64,000 nt of DNA from the NCBI RefSeq assembly GCF_053078305.1, contig NZ_CP166879.1; one strand, 5' to 3'. This document shows, in pieces, positions 5,155 to 46,933 of this stretch (its first letter is position 1; each line of letters starts with the position of its first letter). The notes under the pieces are model-generated. The model was not told where the DNA came from. It made no database searches and saw only the letters and a list, made by a program, of their open reading frames with translations. A program made the translations under genes and the position numbers.

Positions 5155-5295
5155 TTACTGCTTACACTGTAAGAACGCCGCAATCTCCGCGCCCGCTATC
5201 CGGAACCGGAACTCGCACAGTGAACTGTGGGTGATCCAGATAATGAGCACTACCGTGATACAAATCACGGTGGTTTTTAACGGTTTTTGCGACAT
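5155..5295 (-). CDS. hok: Hok/Gef-family type I toxin (46 aa), not in ORF track
   Basis: Own translation: MSQKPLKTTVICITVVLIIWITHSSLCEFRFRIAGAEIAAFLQCKQ; TM helix plus LCE-R-R...AAF signature; AAGGAG RBS 9 nt upstream. Confidence 0.6.
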   Translation of the reverse strand: MSQKPLKTTVICITVVLIIWITHSSLCEFRFRIAGAEIAAFLQCKQ

Positions 5296-5493
5296 AAACG
5301 CTTGCTCCTTTTACGGAGAGGCGCTAACCTTCAATTTGCTGAAGATCGAAAGTCAGGCCTCGGGTTAAACATGAATGTTTGTCCGGGGCCTTCGTCTTTC
5401 CGGCCTTCAGGTGTTCCCTCCGGCCATCAGCCAAAGGCACCCGCGCATACTGTACGGTTTTTGTCTCCTTCCGGCAATCCCGGGGCGCGATGT

Positions 5494-29798: not shown

Positions 29799-31766
29799 TC
29801 ATGCCGCGACGTCCGCGTTGTTCACTTCCACCTTCACACTGTCAATCAGCAGCGTATATGCCGCCGCCTTTGATATGTCTGTCAGTTGCAGTTTGTCCGC
29901 CGACCCTGATGCCGGAGATTTCACCAGTGTGAACGGTGTACCCCGTTTCTCATCCAGTACCGGCATCACCTGAATGCTGTTGTTTCCGGCAAACTCAAAA
30001 GCCAGTGTGTGCCATCCGTTATCAAAGACCCCGAACGTATCCAGCTTCGCATTCTGCTTCTTGTGGTACATCGCGTTCAGGTTCGTCGCATCCGTCTGCA
30101 GGAAGAAGGACATCAGCATGTCGTTGCCTTCCTCTGACAGCGTCACTCCCTCCGGCAGGGACGGCAACTGCCAGTAAATACCCAGGGCAAACTGATTCGG
30201 CACCAGTGCGCCCGGCACCTTAAACCGCACGCTCACACGTCCGCCTTTCTTCAGCAACTCTGCTCCCTGCCCGGCGGCATCATGCTCCAGAAACCAGATG
30301 TGGCTTTCCGGTTTGTTCAGTTGCAGGGCCTTACCACCGGTGGCACCCTCATCACTGACCACAGCCTCAGCGATGTTTTTATCAACACTGTCTCCGCTCG
30401 CCGGTTTGTGATAATAGCGCCAGCCCTGTGATGCCAGGTCTTCACCGGACGCCAGCAGACTCATCAGGGTTCGGTTACTGACCGGGGCTTCCGGCTCTCT
30501 CTCCGGGCCTTCACCGGAAGGTCCGGTGGGCTTCACCGTATCAGGCTGTTTTCCGGTAATGAATTCAGCGGTTCTCCCGGCATGCACCAGAATCGCCGTT
30601 GCCAGACGGTCGGAAATAATCCCACGGCGTGCCCAGGTGCTGAAATGGCTGGCCCTGTCCACAGATGTCCAGGTCTTCTGGTCATTACGCCACTTTGAAC
30701 CGTAATAACCGACGGCTTCCAGGTCCGGGTCTTCTGCCGGGTCATTGGTCTGCACATTCGCACCATTCTCATCCGTCATTAACGGTACAAAGAAAATGTT
30801 CTGCGACTCCTTACCCTTATACCCTCCGTATACTGATGCATACCCTTCCGCATGACGCTGCTTCCAGAAATACGTTGTGTCCCCGCAAATCCACGGTACC
30901 GTTGATGCGCTGCCTCCTGTGCACTGTGATGCCTGACCGGCAAGGTCCGTTCTGAACTGATTCACCATCGCACTAAACAGCCCCGGATGCTGCGCATGCG
31001 TCCCCACTGCCGCATCACCTTCTCCCTGCATCCACACCACCGCAAGCAGACGGTTTTTCGGGTTCTTCGCCAGTGCGGCTTTAGTCCGGCTCACCAAATC
31101 CTGATACAGCGGCTTACCCACACCCCAGCGCAGTGAATTTTCCGATGCACCGGCTGATTCGCTGTATGTGCCGTCTGCACCCGTTGTGAATGCCGAAGCA
31201 CCACGGCAGCACGGAACCAGCAAAATGCCCGCATTCGCCGGTATAAACGGCAGCAGTTTTTTGGCGATATGCAGCCCCTGCCCCACGGTTCCGTACTGCC
31301 CCTTTGACAGGTCCGCTTTCGGATGGTTAAGACGGCTCATGTCCTGCACATCATGCAGACAATGGTCCGCCGGAATAATGTCGTTATACTTACAGGCGGC
31401 ACCGCCCGGTGTCACCGTACTGCGACGCGCCAGCTGCTTAATACGCGGGTCCGGACGGTCATATGTCTCCGGCAGCGGAAGGCCTTCACCATACGACATG
31501 CCGTTTGACTGCCCCGCCAGAACAACAACAAAGTAATACTCCGGTTCGCTGGTGGCGCTGATAACTGTGCCTTCTCCATCCGACGGCTTCACCACCACAG
31601 GTGTGGTGACATCACCTTCCGCCGCAATAGCCTGCATCAGGGTATAAGGCGTGATGGCCACCGGACTGCCAAATGGCTGCCACCCCTCCTTCAGTTTTTG
31701 AGTCAGTCGCTCCGCAAGGTCTGACGGCGACGCCGCCCTGACCACGTCATAGTGTTTAAATGCCAT
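29799..31766 (-). CDS. nanS-p: NanS-p-like sialate O-acetylesterase (DUF1737 N-terminus + SASA/SGNH domain)
   Basis: VVLAGQSNGMSYG catalytic-Ser motif; 655 aa; occupies the position seen downstream of stx in Stx phages. Confidence 0.7.
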   Translation of the reverse strand: MAFKHYDVVRAASPSDLAERLTQKLKEGWQPFGSPVAITPYTLMQAIAAEGDVTTPVVVKPSDGEGTVISATSEPEYYFVVVLAGQSNGMSYGEGLPLPETYDRPDPRIKQLARRSTVTPGGAACKYNDIIPADHCLHDVQDMSRLNHPKADLSKGQYGTVGQGLHIAKKLLPFIPANAGILLVPCCRGASAFTTGADGTYSESAGASENSLRWGVGKPLYQDLVSRTKAALAKNPKNRLLAVVWMQGEGDAAVGTHAQHPGLFSAMVNQFRTDLAGQASQCTGGSASTVPWICGDTTYFWKQRHAEGYASVYGGYKGKESQNIFFVPLMTDENGANVQTNDPAEDPDLEAVGYYGSKWRNDQKTWTSVDRASHFSTWARRGIISDRLATAILVHAGRTAEFITGKQPDTVKPTGPSGEGPEREPEAPVSNRTLMSLLASGEDLASQGWRYYHKPASGDSVDKNIAEAVVSDEGATGGKALQLNKPESHIWFLEHDAAGQGAELLKKGGRVSVRFKVPGALVPNQFALGIYWQLPSLPEGVTLSEEGNDMLMSFFLQTDATNLNAMYHKKQNAKLDTFGVFDNGWHTLAFEFAGNNSIQVMPVLDEKRGTPFTLVKSPASGSADKLQLTDISKAAAYTLLIDSVKVEVNNADVAA

Positions 31767-31963
31767 GAATCCTCCCGGTCGGGATAATGTTGTGAGTCAG
31801 ATAAGGGGCGGGCTGAAGTCCGGAAGTTACAGGACAATGGCAGGAGGAAGACTACAGCCCGCAATACGAAAAAGGCCGCGCAGTTGCGCAGAGTGATTAC
31901 TGTCGGGTATTATTCGCCAGCTGAAAAATTGATTACTTCACGTTTTGTTGTTTATTCCTTGCT

Positions 31964-31993
31964 GCCCGCATCTCACCATGCGGGCTTTTTTTA
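31964..31993 (+). terminator. Rho-independent terminator on + strand
   Basis: cccgcat-ctcacc-atgcggg hairpin followed by cttttttta. Confidence 0.5.
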
Positions 31994-32000
31994 TCCATAA

Positions 32001-32238
32001 GAAAGCCCCTCCGGAGAGGGGCTGGAGTAGCGCTATGTACCGTTCATTACATGATGCCGGGTGCCTCCCGGTGAGTTCAGCCCGGTGCCACCGAACCCGC
32101 GTCATTCTCGCTAACGATCATCAGAGACCATTCCGTACACCAGCCGCCCCTCCGCACAGGGGGATTCATCATGCAGAAATTTTTTAACAAATTCTCAGTC
32201 GGGAAGACAACCTTCAACTGACTGAATTGTGAGCAACA
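32001..32238. repeat. Structured repeat unit 1 (~238 bp), diverged copy of unit at 32489-32723
   Basis: Shared blocks: gcccctccggagaggggc hairpin, gccgggtgcctcccggtgagttcag, cccctccgcacagggggattca-ATG, ttttaacaaa, ctgaattgtgag. Confidence 0.7.
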
Positions 32239-32488
32239 TAGCATTTAACGGGGAACCTGTTTTCTGCAGTAAAAAGGCCCACCGGAGCGGACGGGCCTGG
32301 AAGGATAGCGGTCATGTGATGCCGGTTTCCCGGTAACTCAGCACCGGTATCTGAGTCAACGTTTTCTCTACTGGGTCATTTCCGATACGCCCTGCCTGCT
32401 GACAGGCTTTCATCACATCTGAAAATATAGCACCCTGACTGATACTGTAGTACCCAAGGTTCCAGAAACTGTGATGTATCCGGCACAG

Positions 32489-32723
32489 AAAAGCCCCTCC
32501 GGAGAGGGGCTGACGCTGCGTATCTGTATCATCATGCGCATGGTGCCGGGTGCCTCCCGGTGAGTTCAGTATCAGCACCTGAACCCGCACAGAAAGGATA
32601 AGGGATGTAACCAAACACCTGTCGCTGATATGCCCCTCCGCTCAGGGGGATTCACCATGCCAGTTTCTTTTAACAAACTCCCCGCAAATCAGACAACTGT
32701 CAACCGTCTGAATTGTGAGACAT
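32489..32723. repeat. Structured repeat unit 2 (~235 bp)
   Basis: Same block order as unit 1; hairpins preserved by compensatory changes (ccgcaca vs ccgctca loop). Confidence 0.7.
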
Positions 32724-32789
32724 TTAAAATTTTCGGGGCAACAGGAAGACAATCATCACGACACCGGCAACCAGCGACCGGCACCAGAT

Positions 32790-33725
32790 TTAACGTATGT
32801 GCACACAACCTGAACCGGCATCAAAAAACAAACCGTGCACTGACAGAAAACGGGAAACCTCCGTCCGCTGATCATCACTCATTAAGGACCACACAAAGGC
32901 GTTATGCTCATCTTCAAGTTTCCGTCTTCTTGTTTGCCTTACAAGCAACTCAGCCGTCACCTGTACAATGTCAATGACCACCTTCTCTTCAGCAATGTAC
33001 GGCCTGTTCCAGTTCTCTGTGTTAATCTTCTCCGTCACCGGCGCTGACTTTTTGCAAGTTTCCCCATTAAACCCGACGCCATAAACAACAACATCATCGC
33101 TTTGCTTTTCGTTATCAATAATGACGAATAATACAGAAACCGATGTATCAGCGAACCCGCCTGAAATCTGAACCAACTCAACAACGCGGTTGCCAAAATA
33201 CTGACGCATTGCCAGCTCACCACGCCTGTAACCAACCCCGGGAAAGCACAAAAAAAATGAAAATCTTGCCTTCATACTCGCCAGAACATAAAACGCGTCA
33301 TCCAGAACACCGGAGGTCTTTTTATAAGGCATCATCGCTGAAATCTTCTCCCTGATATCCGCGCTCTGTGCTTTGTACTGTAGCGAAAAAGGCGGATTCA
33401 TGATGACACAATCGAACGTGTCCGTGTCACTGACATCATCTATGGCGTTGAAGAAATTTTCATTGACCGTCTTCACTGTGGCATCCGGAAAGTTATCCGG
33501 GATATGCAACAACGGAGAGGCCTGTATATCCACAGCATACAGACTTCCCACCGTGAGAAACTGCTCCAGTTGCCCGGAGCCACACGCACCATCAAAAATA
33601 CTCAGGGGCAGATCACCACAATATTCCCGCACTTTTTCAGCGACAAACCGACGCAAAGGAACGGACGTGATGTACTCTGCGTATTTTCTGGCGACTTCGC
33701 GATTATTGGATTCCTGAAAAACCAT
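32790..33725 (-). CDS. Putative N6-adenine DNA methyltransferase, gamma-class-like (motif I before NPPF)
   Basis: IFDGACGSGQL (SAM-binding) then VIMNPPF; 311 aa, too small for a separate target-recognition domain; lies at stx-equivalent locus. Confidence 0.6.
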   Translation of the reverse strand: MVFQESNNREVARKYAEYITSVPLRRFVAEKVREYCGDLPLSIFDGACGSGQLEQFLTVGSLYAVDIQASPLLHIPDNFPDATVKTVNENFFNAIDDVSDTDTFDCVIMNPPFSLQYKAQSADIREKISAMMPYKKTSGVLDDAFYVLASMKARFSFFLCFPGVGYRRGELAMRQYFGNRVVELVQISGGFADTSVSVLFVIIDNEKQSDDVVVYGVGFNGETCKKSAPVTEKINTENWNRPYIAEEKVVIDIVQVTAELLVRQTRRRKLEDEHNAFVWSLMSDDQRTEVSRFLSVHGLFFDAGSGCVHIR

Positions 33726-33810
33726 TTGTGAAAGGCTCTGTGGTTGATATGCGCCGGGCGTGGCACGGAGACAAAAAAGGCCCGCAAAAGCGAGCCTGGG
33801 AAAATAAGTG

Positions 33811-33887
33811 TGGCGCGTTGTACTGGATTCGAACCAGTGACCGATTGCTTAGAAGGCAATTGCTCTGTCCGACTGAGCTAACAACGC
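33811..33887 (-). tRNA. argO: tRNA-Arg (anticodon UCU), argO-like
   Basis: Cloverleaf folded by hand: acceptor GCGTTGT/ACAACGC, anticodon loop CTTCTAA, T-loop GGTTCGAATCC, CCA end. Confidence 0.75.
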
Positions 33888-33900
33888 ATGATGCTGATAA

Positions 33901-33977
33901 TGGACCGCCATCGGGGACTTGAACCCCGCGCAGCCAGCTTCGAAGGCTGGCGCTCTGTCCCGATGAGCTAATGGCGG
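33901..33977 (-). tRNA. argN: tRNA-Arg (anticodon UCG as read), argN-like
   Basis: Acceptor CCGCCAT/ATGGCGG, anticodon loop CTTCGAA, T-arm CGGGGTTCAAGTCCCCG. Confidence 0.65.
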
Positions 33978-33986
33978 TATGTGATA

Positions 33987-34062
33987 TGGTGGCCCTTGCT
34001 GGATTTGAACCAGCGACCTGGCGATTATGAGTCGCTCGCTCTCACCACTGAGCTAAAGGGCC
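33987..34062 (-). tRNA. ileZ: tRNA with CAU anticodon, ileX-like (tRNA-Ile2 via lysidine, or Met)
   Basis: GGCCCTTTAGCTCAGTGGTGAGAGC...CTCATAA...GGTTCAAATCC...CCA; close to E. coli ileX. Confidence 0.75.
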
Positions 34063-34102: not shown

Positions 34103-35161
34103 TCATCCGTTCTGACTGGCTAAATCCTGAACTTCCCTGACCGTCTGCTCAAAACGTTCAGTCTCCAGCTCAACGCCAGTTGCACGACGCCCCAGCGCCA
34201 TCGCGGCTTTGACTGTCGAACCCGACCCCATGAAAAAATCTGCAACCAGGTCCCCCGGACGACTGCTCGCGCTGATTATCTGCTGCAGCATTTCTGCCGG
34301 TTTTTCGCACGGATGTTTCCCGGGATAGTACTGCACCGGTTTATGCGTCCACACATCCGTGTACGGCACCTGCGCCGTCACACCGAAATACCGCCGCAGA
34401 TGCTTATATTCACTCTGCAGTTCCGCATACTGCCGGTTCAGTGAAGTATATGTCTCCAGCAGCTGGTGGTGGGGCTTTTCCAGTTCACCCCGCTGATGCT
34501 TCTCTTCTGCCACCCGGGCAAACAGCGCCTGTAATTTCAGATAATCACTTTCGTTCGGCAGCTGCCACTGACTGGCACTGAACCAGTGCGACACCATGTT
34601 TTTCTTTCCTGTGGCATCCACTATCTGTTTTGCCGTTATCCCCAGGGCAGCGCGCGCATCACGAAAGTAAGCAATCAGCGGGGCCATCACATGCTGTTTC
34701 AGTGCCCTGCCCTTCGCCTCATACCCGGCATCTTTCGGACGATACGGCCCCTGATAATGTTCCGCGAACAGAATGCGCTCTGTGGCGGGGAAATACGCCC
34801 GCAGGCTTTCCTTGTTGCACCCGTTCCAGCGTCCGGACGGCTTTGCCCAGATGATATGGTTCAGCACACTGAAGCGTTCACGCATCATGATTTCAATGTC
34901 AGACGCCAGGCGATGACCACAGAACAGGTAAAGACTTCCGGCAGGTTTCAGCACCCGCCAGAACTGCGCCAGACACTGGTCCAGCCACTTCAGGTAATCA
35001 TCGTCGCCCTTCCACTGGTTATCCCAGCCCTCGGGCTTCACTTTAAAGTATGGCGGGTCTGTGACTATCAGATCGACAGAGTTTTCCGGTAAGGTCTGGA
35101 TAAATTCCAGGCAATCAGCGTTGATTAACTCACAACTGGATATTTTTACAGTATTAAGCAT
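34103..35161 (-). CDS. DNA methyltransferase, beta-class (DPPY ... FxGxG), 352 aa
   Basis: DLIVTDPPYF near N-terminus; DFFMGSGSTV near C-terminus. Confidence 0.75.
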   Translation of the reverse strand: MLNTVKISSCELINADCLEFIQTLPENSVDLIVTDPPYFKVKPEGWDNQWKGDDDYLKWLDQCLAQFWRVLKPAGSLYLFCGHRLASDIEIMMRERFSVLNHIIWAKPSGRWNGCNKESLRAYFPATERILFAEHYQGPYRPKDAGYEAKGRALKQHVMAPLIAYFRDARAALGITAKQIVDATGKKNMVSHWFSASQWQLPNESDYLKLQALFARVAEEKHQRGELEKPHHQLLETYTSLNRQYAELQSEYKHLRRYFGVTAQVPYTDVWTHKPVQYYPGKHPCEKPAEMLQQIISASSRPGDLVADFFMGSGSTVKAAMALGRRATGVELETERFEQTVREVQDLASQNG

Positions 35162-38690: not shown

Positions 38691-38846
38691 TTACTTCTCA
38701 GATTCGTAGTCTACGAAGACAGCAACCTCCGTCTGGCCGGTTCGGATTCGTACCTCGCAGAGGTCTTTCCTCGTTACCAGTGCCGTCACAACAACGGTAA
38801 TACAGATGACGATCAGGGCGATTAACATCGCCTTTTGCTGCTTCAT
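38691..38846 (-). CDS. hok: Hok-family type I toxin (51 aa)
   Basis: MKQQKAMLIALIVICITVVVTALVTRKDLCEVRIRTGQTEVAVFVDYESEK; track ORF extends upstream (mok-like reading frame). Confidence 0.8.
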   Translation of the reverse strand: MKQQKAMLIALIVICITVVVTALVTRKDLCEVRIRTGQTEVAVFVDYESEK

Positions 38847-39136
38847 AGCCTGCTTCTCCTTGCCTTTCGGCACGTAAGAGGCTAACCTACGTTTGTGAAG
38901 CATAGATTGGGCCTCAGATTAATGTTAAGCGTCCTGCAAGACGCGTAATGTTAACTGGGGCTTTTCTCTGTCTGCCTTACGGCGGCATGCCCGAGGCAGA
39001 CAGCCTCAAGCACCCGCAGCAATTCTACTTAACTCTTCTTTCCCCGCAAACCGTTTTTATCCCCAGCGGCAAATCGAATACACCACCAGCGCCACCGCCA
39101 TTGCAATACCAACATTTGAGAAGGCCTCAGGCCAGC

Positions 39137-46475: not shown

Positions 46476-46933
46476 AAAGTGAATTTTGTGATGCGGTGAA
46501 TGCGGCTAAGCGCACGCGGAACAGTTAAAACCGTAAAGTGGTCTTTTACGGGGCGTAACGGGCATACTTCTGTATTCCGGCGTTAATTGTTAACTGGTTA
46601 ACGTCACCTGGAGGCACCAGGCACTGCATCGACAAAGTTCACTTCGGTGATGAAAGGTAAGAGAAAATGTTGAATGTAGCTATTGAAAACCAGAACGGGT
46701 GGAATTATAGTGCACCTGCACCTCATAAAGCGGGTGCCGGGATTGCTACCCCGATGTTCATCATGGCGCATAACCGCGCTCAGGCGTTTTTTTTATGCGT
46801 AATGCACAGCCACATTCAGATTATGGTGGGGCGTGCAGGGCAGCCGCAAGGCTGGCCGGGTTCCATGATGACCGGTTGTAGCAACCCTGTGCGTCTCACC
46901 ACCCATGAGATTGCTACCTCCGGTGGTGAGTTA

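Follow-up and report, generated by a model that had tools for sequence, protein, structure and literature searches.

Tandem genes of the STnc100 small RNA family beside a methyltransferase cargo gene at the stx2AB position of a Shiga-toxin-type prophage

The DNA considered here, a 64,000-nucleotide stretch of contig NZ_CP166879.1 (assembly GCF_053078305.1) that is called the window below, carries a cluster of phage tRNA genes, a putative DNA methyltransferase gene and, beyond it, about 1 kb of DNA that ends at a nanS-p-type esterase gene (Table 1). The 1-kb interval holds no long conserved ORF and is non-coding; the first-pass annotation of this DNA had likewise seen no convincing ORF in it. 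The two diverged units that this annotation described there, with the same block order and with GC hairpins resembling terminators on the minus strand, are also present. A repeat finder returns a 111-nt pair (32146-32256 and 32632-32742) that is 72% identical, an identical 23-mer, AAAGCCCCTCCGGAGAGGGGCTG, at 32002 and 32490, and a 31-mer pair at 32050 and 32539 with 97% identity, and both hairpins score as terminator-like on that strand.

Table 1. Features of the cargo site and its relatives in the window
Feature	Position	Strand	Remarks
STnc100 copy A (unit 2 of the first-pass annotation)	32485..32660	-	Leading copy in the direction of transcription; the predicted RNA begins with the first base of P1 and ends in the terminator U-tract
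Copy A terminator stem	32511-32492	-	Scored terminator-like
Copy A promoter	32667..32696	-	-35 TTGTCT 32691-32696, 18-nt spacer, extended -10 TGtTAAAAG 32667-32675
Degenerate third copy	32269..32418	-	Between A and B; whole unit 32269-32442
STnc100 copy B (unit 1 of the first-pass annotation)	31997..32174	-	Last in the tandem array
Copy B terminator stem	32023-32004	-	Scored terminator-like
Copy B promoter	32181..32210	-	-35 TTGTCT 32205-32210, extended -10 TGtTAAAAA 32181-32189; read from sequence
Fourth, divergent family member	46487..46632	+	Followed by isrK, C4 and an antirepressor-like ORF; ~14 kb from the array
Convergent short sRNA gene (predicted)	31935..31992	+	AsxR/AgvB-type anti-sRNA position; 5' end approximate
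Convergent sRNA terminator	31964-31985	+	Stem, then T7; terminator-like site
DNA methyltransferase, N6-adenine-type (putative), 311 aa	32790..33725	-	Motif I DGACGSG, then motif IV NPPF
Cargo ("moron") cassette, ~1.04 kb	32730..33771		Carries the methyltransferase gene; from the tRNA-Arg terminator to the TTTTAAATGTCTCACAATTCAG junction
Phage tRNA cluster Met/Ile-CAT, Arg-TCG, Arg-TCT	33811..34062	-	Marks the stx insertion site

The structured repeat units belong to STnc100, a known and catalogued sRNA gene family of Shiga-toxin-type prophages, and are arranged in tandem. Their likeness is not due to chance, because both match one covariance model, Rfam RF02076 (STnc100), end to end. On the minus strand, which is the strand of the phage late genes, copy B scores 164.2 bits (31993-32203, model positions 1-206 of 206) and copy A scores 134.9 bits (32483-32689, again 1-206 of 206), with E-values of 5e-37 and 2e-29 for the two matches. 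These scores are about three times the gathering score of 47 bits, the membership threshold for the whole model, and thus mark both copies as full-length members. A core model built in this analysis, R1, gives 106 bits for copy A and 107.7 bits for copy B. The middle copy stays below the gathering score (28.5 bits, E = 6e-4) and reaches 31.5 bits with R1 (E = 7.5e-5), and the copy at 46487-46632, for which the Rfam scan of the window found no match at the gathering score, reaches 48.4 bits with R1 (E = 4e-9). By Rfam's rule, these two are relatives of STnc100 rather than members. The same tandem array recurs in several IMG/VR contigs. A search of the stretch found no transposase-type ORF, related genomes carry no such annotation, and since the repeats are explained by an RNA family, they do not represent the remnant of an IS or REP element that the first-pass annotation had named as a way in which its reading could fail. 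That annotation did not recognise the catalogued family (RF02076, with EcOnc27/sRNA103 and the relative PasD), and it overlooked the degenerate unit, the plus-strand terminator and the fourth member. Overall it is partly supported: the observation was real, the interpretation was mostly wrong, and the feature was already known.

Each copy is a self-contained gene, composed of a σ70 promoter with an extended -10 sequence, a multi-helix 5' domain of ~115-130 nt, a variable, single-stranded linker, and an intrinsic terminator. The extended -10 of copy A ends 6 nt ahead of helix P1, and in lambdoid and Gifsy-type relatives this position is kept, with the extended -10 ending 5-7 nt upstream of P1; divergent family members have no recognisable promoter directly upstream. 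For the homologue PasD2, RNA-seq places the estimated 5' end at the first base of P1. Transcripts of the STnc100 copies therefore probably start at helix P1, and the RF02076 model, which starts ~30 nt upstream of this likely start, includes promoter DNA. When copy A is folded as a single sequence, P1, P3 and P4 are recovered, followed by the linker and the terminator; the fold of copy B (z = -2.9) favours an alternative in which P2 pairs with the terminator. The linkers of copies A and B lie at about 32512-32540 and 32024-32052, respectively. The U-tracts at the terminators of copies A and B are poor (UUUCUGU and UUCUUAU), so the actual 3' ends could deviate from those predicted. The degenerate copy has the architecture of A and B, with P1 formed by AUGUGAUG and CAUCACAU, P2, P3, and a P4 of CCGG-GAAA-CCGG. 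Its extended -10 is TGCTATATT (32424-32432), its terminator is strong (stem 32298-32275, then UUUUU), and its fold has a z of -2.4. Of 5,426 E. coli genomes, 672 contain the sequence of this copy, and none annotates it. In the member at 46487-46632, P4 is CCUGG/CCAGG, a compensatory change.

The first-pass annotation had suggested selection on RNA structure, and the covariation check bears this out. Among 74 distinct relatives, double (compensatory) changes occur at 25 of 29 helix pairs, and 89% of the helix cells pair, compared with ~40% when the partners are slid; none of 500 shuffles matched the observed value. Because the 74-relative alignment was fitted to the covariance model, it is biased toward that structure, but an independent plain MAFFT alignment gives 88% pairing versus 41-47%. 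Thus, the consensus helices P1-P4 of STnc100 have covariation support. The 5' domain also contains a strongly covarying pseudoknot, in which the stretch just 3' of P2 pairs with the loop of P3; in copy B, CUGGUG at 32137-32142 would pair with CACCGG at 32081-32086. Pair counts from structure tools were dropped here because the MAFFT and Infernal alignments shift the 5' strand by one column between subfamilies; shuffling and partner swapping on unaligned windows were used instead. At least 20 distinct complementary strand pairs occur, the diagonal sum in the partner-swap test is 128 versus 91.6 +/- 4.8 (0 of 200,000 permutations as high), and the combined shuffle p is ~2e-12. Shuffles of single sequences are individually weak (p < 0.05 in 12 of 36), and it is the combined and swap tests that make the evidence convincing. 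No mention of this pseudoknot was found in the RF02076 model or in the literature consulted; together with the divergent copies of the domain recognised in phage P1, it appears to be new here.

Across relatives with very different helices, a single-stranded signature is near-invariant: GGUGAAUcC, GCG in the P2 loop, gCGg before P3, and ACCGGGAGGCACCCGG. The family loci were gathered using a 19-mer from the P4 region, and invariance in that region is thus partly an artefact. In contig L017, domain members lie 5 nt upstream of tRNA genes. Phage P1 carries the domain within its tRNA-upl-plp region, with a copy between tRNA-Thr and upl, and next to tRNA genes the 5' domain is also found with no obvious linker or terminator. 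Close association of the domain with tRNA genes was considered as a rule and rejected: it is seen only in contig L017, and elsewhere the tRNA genes lie 100-1,400 nt upstream with cargo between.

At its far end the array meets a predicted sRNA gene on the plus strand. The stretch 31767-32010 is 94% identical to the stretch of a Stx2d phage that holds the reported position of AsxR (PMC4104026), and the EPEC homologue of the plus-strand terminator sequence has been recovered as an Hfq-bound sRNA (PMC8550237). Convergent sRNA pairs were described at the cargo site of eight Sakai prophages (PMC4104026, 2014). An AsxR/AgvB-type gene was expected to encode a short RNA in antisense orientation to the late genes, conserved over ~42 nt of its 3' part and ending against the STnc100 terminator; the position and the terminator are present, and the start is approximate. 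At E-values up to 10, the Rfam AsxR and AgvB models matched neither the window nor a genuine Stx2 phage that served as positive control, so this negative result carries little weight. Since the models match neither sequence, the assignment is by position and literature sequences.

The predicted methyltransferase lies upstream of the array. The 311-aa NPPF methyltransferase ORF of the first-pass annotation exists, with DGACGSG at about residues 45-51 and NPPF (in VIMNPPF) at about 110-113 of the translation, which is the gamma-class order of an AdoMet motif I, FxGxG-like, N-terminal to the catalytic motif IV, (N/D)PP(F/Y/W). It matches PHROG phrog_6380 ("DNA methyltransferase") at E = 1.5e-77 and is named SAM-dependent DNA methyltransferase in RefSeq. 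Its Pfam matches are weak (MTS, and N6_Mtase and Eco57I with E-values of 0.0026 and 0.015), the NCBIfam hsdM model gives 25.5 bits against a cutoff of 243, and among solved structures the EcoR124II M subunit is nearest (E = 1.4e-4). No restriction partner (S or R) is encoded nearby. A role in defence was considered and set aside, as PADLOC gave only weak, generic methyltransferase matches.

A three-way alignment of the window, an empty site (L047) and a Stx2d phage defines the boundaries of the cassette that carries this gene. The cargo sits exactly where stx2AB lies, between the tRNA-Arg terminator and TGTCTCACAATTCAG, and the earlier description of the site as an stx-equivalent locus is correct. 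The GC content of the cassette is 45-47%, versus 54-58% in the flanks. The arrangement with the methyltransferase is rare (11 of 5,426 complete E. coli genomes), in contrast to sequence similar to parts of the 2.4-kb stretch, namely the RNA units, the tRNA genes and the start of the esterase gene, which is found in 3,213 of the 5,426. The same RNA units are also seen behind stx2AB and where the site is empty. Since they exist without the methyltransferase, the RNAs do not serve it, and the proposal that they regulate it fails. The putative methyltransferase is unrelated, horizontally acquired cargo in the stx2AB slot.

Several relatives of the array have been studied. Eleven STnc100 copies of EDL933 are transcribed, one confirmed by Northern blot (PMC5331693), and a copy lies 75 nt after stx2B (PMC12370729). 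STnc100 overlaps the Hfq-bound EcOnc27/sRNA103 of EHEC (PMC12711010; PMC7873438) and is related to PasD, an Hfq-dependent sRNA with the seed UGUGAG in its 3' linker (PMC8550237; bioRxiv 10.64898/2026.05.13.724894). Reports on STnc100 function comprise only an effect of overexpression on fimZ/espA and an in-silico match to stxB. PasA was also sought near the esterase gene, and its published probe sequence has no match there at up to 3 mismatches.

Together, these results make it likely that the ~1-kb interval from the methyltransferase gene to the nanS-p-type esterase gene represents an sRNA gene cluster, with three tandem genes of the STnc100/PasD family and one convergent sRNA gene. The cluster would lie at the cargo site that follows the Q-dependent late promoter, as is typical of Stx-type lambdoid prophages. 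On the minus strand, copy A, the degenerate copy and copy B would follow one another, each independently promoted, and copy B would converge on the short plus-strand sRNA of the AsxR/AgvB type. Each STnc100 RNA is predicted to be ~150-180 nt long and to start at the first base of the closing helix P1. Its 5' domain would fold into P1, hairpins P2, P3 and P4, and the pseudoknot between the post-P2 stretch and the P3 loop; a variable single-stranded linker of ~25-35 nt and a GC-rich intrinsic terminator would follow. By analogy with the studied relatives, the window copies would be expressed as Hfq-associated trans-acting regulators, whose variable linker may hold the seed and pair with host and prophage mRNAs, and whose structured 5' domain may be a stabilising or partner-binding module. 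The seed position is carried over from PasD, whose P4 hairpin is missing.

The proposal of type-I-TA-like loci, that is, paired cis-antisense RNA and mini-ORF loci encoding a small plus-strand peptide, is very improbable. The GGGGGA-N6-ATG motif is present as described, and in unit 1 it opens a 16-codon plus-strand ORF. It is not conserved, however: of 94 relatives, 29 lack the ATG, and in the others the ORF has 2, 5, 6, 10, 16, 28, 59 or >60 codons. The copy B mini-ORF, MQKFFNKFSVGKTTFN, is the reverse complement of the copy B promoter stretch, and the conserved residues FNK and TT correspond to the -10 (TTGTTAAAA) and the -35 (TTGTCT) in reverse complement; thus, the conserved codons mirror the promoter of the opposite strand. 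The peptide is not hydrophobic, and the real hok/sok loci that an Rfam scan finds within the window look quite different. Appreciable ribosome footprints have been reported on some EDL933 STnc100 copies, but on the sRNA strand (PMC5331693). The comparative sequence data already contradict the mini-ORF reading, and the remaining suggestion, that the units are remnants of a duplicated gene start, is at odds with the covariation and with the promoter and terminator that each unit has of its own. It is also unlikely that the units merely act in cis on the late transcript, for example as sites for its processing or stabilisation, or as leaky terminators that keep cargo and lysis genes insulated until they are passed by Q-modified polymerase. 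Consistent with that idea, they share the strand of the late operon, always lie between the late promoter, tRNAs or cargo and the esterase and lysis genes, and place three consecutive minus-strand terminators within 700 bp. Against it stand the well-placed promoter in front of every unit, the 5' end at P1 in a homologue, the abundance of homologues in lysogens without induction, and the existence of family members outside late operons.

The 5' domain is unusually elaborate and conserved for a plain base-pairing sRNA, and it sometimes occurs next to tRNA genes without an obvious linker or terminator, which hints at a function outside the base-pairing model. It is possible, if doubtful, that the function resides in the pseudoknotted domain itself, through a specific partner that may be a protein, an RNA or a small molecule, and that the lambdoid sRNAs are one packaging of it; in other phages, it could be released from tRNA-containing transcripts or act as the leader of a downstream gene. 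The near-invariant signature, the covarying pseudoknot, the members beside tRNA genes in contig L017 and phage P1, the member upstream of isrK/C4, and the divergent members lacking a recognisable promoter all point this way. On the other hand, the P4 invariance is inflated by the 19-mer collection, PasD is a functional Hfq partner without P4, tRNA linkage is tight in a single contig, no riboswitch or ribozyme model of Rfam gave a match, and the partner is purely hypothetical. A tentative extension, with a similarly low probability, is that the 5' domains of STnc100, PasD, the two sub-threshold window copies, phage P1 and other tRNA-bearing phages form an unrecognised class of pseudoknotted RNA with its own partner or activity; it might serve, for example, as a decoy for a protein, as a stable RNA linked to tRNA operons or as a sensor, and Hfq-dependent sRNA behaviour in lambdoid phages would be a secondary add-on.

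Taken as an sRNA gene cluster, the repeats belong to a prophage sRNA family that is catalogued and multicopy, and they lie where this family is usually found. Few annotated sRNAs of bacterial genomes are as abundant as STnc100, which lies directly after stx2 and overlaps sequence features reported to predict severe disease. The probable start of the transcript at P1, the promoter DNA in the Rfam model, and the covarying pseudoknot are handles for experimenters; together with the relatives in phage P1 and at isrK/C4, the pseudoknot and start site would allow gene boundaries to be corrected and add new homologues. The methyltransferase gene adds to the known cargo of the stx slot, an ordinary arrangement for such phages, and its cassette shows that the slot swaps cargo at a precisely defined junction.

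Compared with known systems, the window array closely parallels STnc100, including the copy after stx2B that overlaps EcOnc27/sRNA103: the array copies A and B match the full-length model, and the strand relative to the late genes, the terminator hairpin (GCCCCUCUCCGGAGGGGC) and the position behind tRNAs and cargo, ahead of the nanS-p esterase gene, are the same. The Stx2 phage compared has a single copy, whereas the window has three in tandem, the middle one below the Rfam gathering score; the linker sequences also differ, so their targets may differ. The RF02076 model itself includes promoter DNA and lacks the pseudoknot. PasD1 and PasD2 of EPEC E2348/69 (EcOnc13 homologues), whose Hfq dependence is documented by Northern blot and RIL-seq, share the promoter type, the start at P1, P1, P2, P3, the pseudoknot (AAUGAUC/GAUCAUU in PasD), and a location upstream of a sialate esterase gene. 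Unlike the window copies, PasD has lost the P4 hairpin, leaving GGGAGG, and has another linker and another terminator; it scores only 32 bits with R1. Neither its UGUGAG seed nor its GGCUGCGCAU(G/U)GCGC terminator is shared by the window copies, and only the 5' domain architecture is common. As in the AsxR/EcOnc27 and AgvB/EcOnc06 pairs (Tree et al. 2014), the terminator of the plus-strand sRNA abuts the last STnc100 terminator, but the terminator loop and 5' part differ from the Stx2-phage version. Type I TA loci such as hok/sok are likewise short structured prophage repeats with a possible small ORF opposite an RNA; here, in contrast, there is no conserved ORF, no hydrophobic peptide, and no overlap of the RNA with a translated mRNA. 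Finally, the putative methyltransferase resembles the HsdM/Eco57I-like gamma class (PHROG 6380) in having motif I followed by NPPF and a distant similarity to the EcoR124II M subunit, but it is short (311 aa), lacks an obvious large target-recognition domain and S/R partners, and has its nearest phage homologues, at 40-44% identity, in Streptococcus, Mannheimia and Fusobacterium phages.

The two repeat units that the first-pass annotation had described from sequence lie in the late region of a lambdoid prophage, which is transcribed from the minus strand (see table). The units are real: a repeat finder returns a 111-nt pair (72% identical), a 23-mer shared exactly and a 31-mer shared at 97% identity, and their GC hairpins are, as proposed, terminator-like sites on the minus strand. 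Both units match Rfam RF02076, "Gammaproteobacterial sRNA STnc100", end to end on the minus strand (164.2 and 134.9 bits; gathering score 47), and Rfam at a relaxed threshold gives a third, degenerate copy between them (28.5 bits, E = 6e-4). A core-domain covariance model built from 21 diverse relatives finds all three tandem copies and a fourth on the plus strand. The order copy, degenerate copy, copy also occurs in several IMG/VR contigs, and a search with the middle copy alone finds it in 672 E. coli genomes, unannotated in the matches listed.

The units are a known sRNA family at its known site, a real but ordinary finding. In EDL933, 11 STnc100 copies are transcribed, one of them confirmed by Northern blot (PMC5331693). 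Another copy, which starts 75 nt past stx2B, has been found in outer-membrane vesicles (PMC12370729); it overlaps EcOnc27/sRNA103, an sRNA bound by Hfq, as well as sequence features linked to haemolytic uraemic syndrome (PMC12711010; PMC7873438). At the cargo site, eight Sakai prophages carry convergent sRNA genes, as Tree et al. described (PMC4104026), and a 2026 preprint ties the EPEC sRNAs PasD1 and PasD2 and esterase genes to STnc100 (bioRxiv 10.64898/2026.05.13.724894). Beyond the searchable literature are a pseudoknot, a corrected 5' boundary, two sub-threshold paralogues in the window, and relatives in phage P1. The nearest complete genomes are human STEC isolates (identity about 98.8%); the whole 2.4-kb arrangement is found in 11 of 5,426 complete E. 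coli genomes, and similarity to parts of it in 3,213.

Features of the prophage late region (minus-strand genes in transcription order) and of other parts of the window
Feature	Position	Strand	Remark
Q antiterminator-like gene		-	first in late region
352-aa PF01555-type DNA methylase	34103-35161	-	after Q-like gene
Three tRNA genes	33811-34062	-	after 352-aa methylase
Methyltransferase cassette	about 32730-33771		between tRNA-Arg terminator and junction TTTTAAATGTCTCACAATTCAG
311-aa methyltransferase ORF	32790-33725	-	after tRNA genes
Stretch without long ORF			about 1 kb, between methyltransferase ORF and esterase gene
STnc100 copy A	32485-32660	-	P2 hairpin 32632-32653; look-alike terminator 32483-32511
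Middle copy	32269-32442	-	degenerate
STnc100 copy B	31997-32174	-	P2 hairpin 32146-32167; look-alike terminator 31993-32030
Convergent sRNA-like gene	31935-31992	+	short; strong terminator 31964-31985
Terminator-like hairpin	31876-31891	-	about 110 nt upstream of esterase start
655-aa nanS-p-type (SASA) esterase gene	29799-31766	-
Small lysis-region genes			last, past esterase gene
Fourth, divergent STnc100/PasD-domain member	46487-46632	+	48 bits on core model, below Rfam gathering score
283-aa ORF across isrK/C4	46667-47518
isrK	46718-46794	+	58 bits
C4 antisense RNA	46819-46906	+	78 bits
sok antitoxin RNA match	38841-39015	-	118 bits
sok antitoxin RNA match	5284-5442	-	63.5 bits

Relatives gathered by a 19-mer from the 3' hairpin came from more than 120 viral contigs (a lower bound), with 63-68 distinct cores among the matches listed. 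The core is closed by helix P1, GCAUGGUG/CACCAUGC, with variants GUUGCGGUG/CACCGCAAC, GUGUGGUG/CACCACAC and UUGCAGUG/CACUGCAA. There follow a GAAU junction, a P2 hairpin whose loop contains GCG, a variable insert, hairpin P3, a single A, and hairpin P4 (CCGGG-AGGCA-CCCGG), which lies directly against the 3' strand of P1. In a plain MAFFT alignment, 88% of pairing cells can pair, versus 41-47% with the partners slid, and 13 pairs contain double changes. Among 74 distinct relatives, in an alignment that, unlike the plain one, was fitted to the model, the values are 89% and about 40%, with compensatory changes in 25 of 29 pairs; none of 500 shuffles reached the observed pairing values. P4 covaries (CCUGG/CCAGG) in members found by the model, and is otherwise invariant by ascertainment. 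Folded singly, copy A and the middle copy each show the domain, linker and terminator. Within each copy the arms of hairpin P2 (CCCCCUGUGCGGAGGGGC) are nearly identical to those of the terminator hairpin (GCCCCUCUCCGGAGGGGC), so that the two hairpins can also pair together. In copy B the minimum-energy fold does join P2 to its look-alike terminator, which may be an artefact or an alternative state.

In nearly every relative, a stretch 2-5 nt past P2 is complementary to the P3 loop, with differing sequences: CUGGUG/CACCGG in copy B, AUCAGC/GCUGAU in copy A, AAUGAUC/GAUCAUU in PasD2, and elsewhere CCAGUC/GACUGG, CCAGAC/GUCUGG, AAGGUUG/CAACCUU, UAAGCUAA/UUAGCUUA, GAACUGGC/GCCAGUUC and AGACUGACA/UGUCAGUCU. 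Tests of this pseudoknot on individual sequences are weak; shuffling gives a combined p-value of about 2e-12. In a partner-swap test across 20 distinct types, the real pairs score 128 versus 91.6 +/- 4.8, and 0 of 200,000 permutations scored as high. The pseudoknot is absent from the RF02076 structure line and unmentioned in the most relevant preprint.

Members of the lambdoid and Gifsy types have a sigma-70 promoter whose end lies 5-7 nt before P1, with a -35 of TTGTCT, TTGCCT, TTGACT or TTGACC, a spacer of 16-18 nt and, in many, an extended -10 such as TGTTAAAAA. For PasD2, the 5' end estimated from RNA-seq (NC_011601:741157) falls precisely on the base that opens P1. The predicted transcription start is therefore at P1, and some 30 positions at the front of the Rfam model probably represent promoter DNA. 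Past P1, a variable stretch of about 25-35 nt leads to the terminator. Because the RIL-seq-derived seed of PasD, UGUGAG, sits in this 3' linker (PMC8550237), we infer by analogy that the linker would be the pairing region in the window copies.

This promoter also accounts for the plus-strand mini-ORF on which a possible type I toxin-antitoxin reading rested. The ORF begins at the CAT of P1 and continues through the promoter; the residues conserved in it, FNK and TT, are the reverse complement of the -10 and -35 hexamers. Its ATG is missing in 29 of 94 distinct relatives, and elsewhere ORF length ranges from 2 codons to over 60. The mini-ORF is not a gene, and the toxin-antitoxin reading is unsupported. 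Remnants of a duplicated gene start are likewise unsupported, given the covariation and the promoter and terminator that each unit has of its own. Nor do the units appear to be regulators of the methyltransferase, since the same units accompany stx2AB and occur at empty sites. Elsewhere in the window, two sok matches point to genuine hok/sok-type type I loci.

The proposal that the methyltransferase occupies the stx-equivalent locus is borne out. Alignment with a Stx2d phage and with L047, an empty site in which the RNA gene follows tRNA-Arg by 102 nt, places the cassette exactly where stx2AB lies; its GC content is 45-47%, versus 54-58% in the flanks. The protein matches PHROG 6380 ("DNA methyltransferase", E = 1.5e-77) and has a motif I ahead of NPPF, like gamma-class N6-adenine enzymes. 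Pfam matches (MTS, N6_Mtase, Eco57I) are marginal, NCBIfam matches fall far below cutoff, PADLOC gives generic matches only, and among solved structures the EcoR124II M subunit comes closest (E = 1.4e-4). Its closest phage homologues (40-44% identity) are in Streptococcus, Mannheimia and Fusobacterium phages; a search for phage-encoded homologues found it in no E. coli phage record. No restriction gene adjoins it. It is a rare, foreign, solitary cargo gene for a predicted methyltransferase. In the related locus L001 (NZ_CP027323, 5093-5959), RefSeq gives a 288-aa protein starting downstream of the 311-aa ORF's ATG; NZ_CP027340 carries an IS1 in the region, and another related genome annotates the gene as subunit M of a type I R-M system.

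On the plus strand, a short sRNA-like gene converges on the units. The stretch that its terminator closes (CACGUUUUGUUGUUUAUUCCUUGCUGCCCGC...) is 94% identical to Stx2d-phage sequence at the reported position of AsxR (PMC4104026), and is very similar to an intergenic RNA of EPEC that was recovered with Hfq. Neither this stretch nor its counterpart in a genuine Stx2 phage is matched by the AsxR or AgvB model of Rfam, and so the assignment is kept at "AsxR/AgvB-type by position"; position and sequence suggest a relation to these anti-sRNAs. An extra terminator-like hairpin, CTGCGCAACTGCGCGG then CCTTTTTCGT, precedes the esterase gene and is also kept in the Stx2d phage.

The domain extends beyond lambdoid cargo sites, and the core model matches divergent copies that fall under the Rfam threshold. 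In phage P1 and relatives, a copy of the pseudoknotted domain lies between tRNA-Thr and upl/plp, upstream of ban; that in the viral contig L077 (4931-5060), in the same orientation as the tRNAs and ban, matches P1, RCS47 and vB_EcoM-813R1, and is unannotated in the phage records among the matches listed. Another viral contig, L017, has four copies among tRNA genes (335-461, 682-805, 1308-1426, 1876-2011), two of which end 5 nt ahead of a tRNA gene, a spacing that suggests release by RNase P processing. In the P1-type and L017 copies the lambdoid promoter is missing, and helix P1 is directly preceded by a conserved GUGCUCUUUCC-like stretch. A same-strand tRNA gene lies within 3 kb of about half of the distinct cores, usually upstream with cargo between. 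The divergent copies without a lambdoid promoter and the tRNA neighbourhood support, but do not prove, a role of the core domain's own.

The fourth copy in the window, whose P4 carries the compensatory change CCUGG/CCAGG, lies ~85 nt before isrK, and ~35 nt beyond the copy an ATG starts a long ORF through isrK and C4; the start of the 283-aa ORF called here is probably wrong. The tandem isrK-C4 arrangement upstream of an antirepressor-like ORF resembles the immI region of P1 and the isrK regions of Gifsy prophages.
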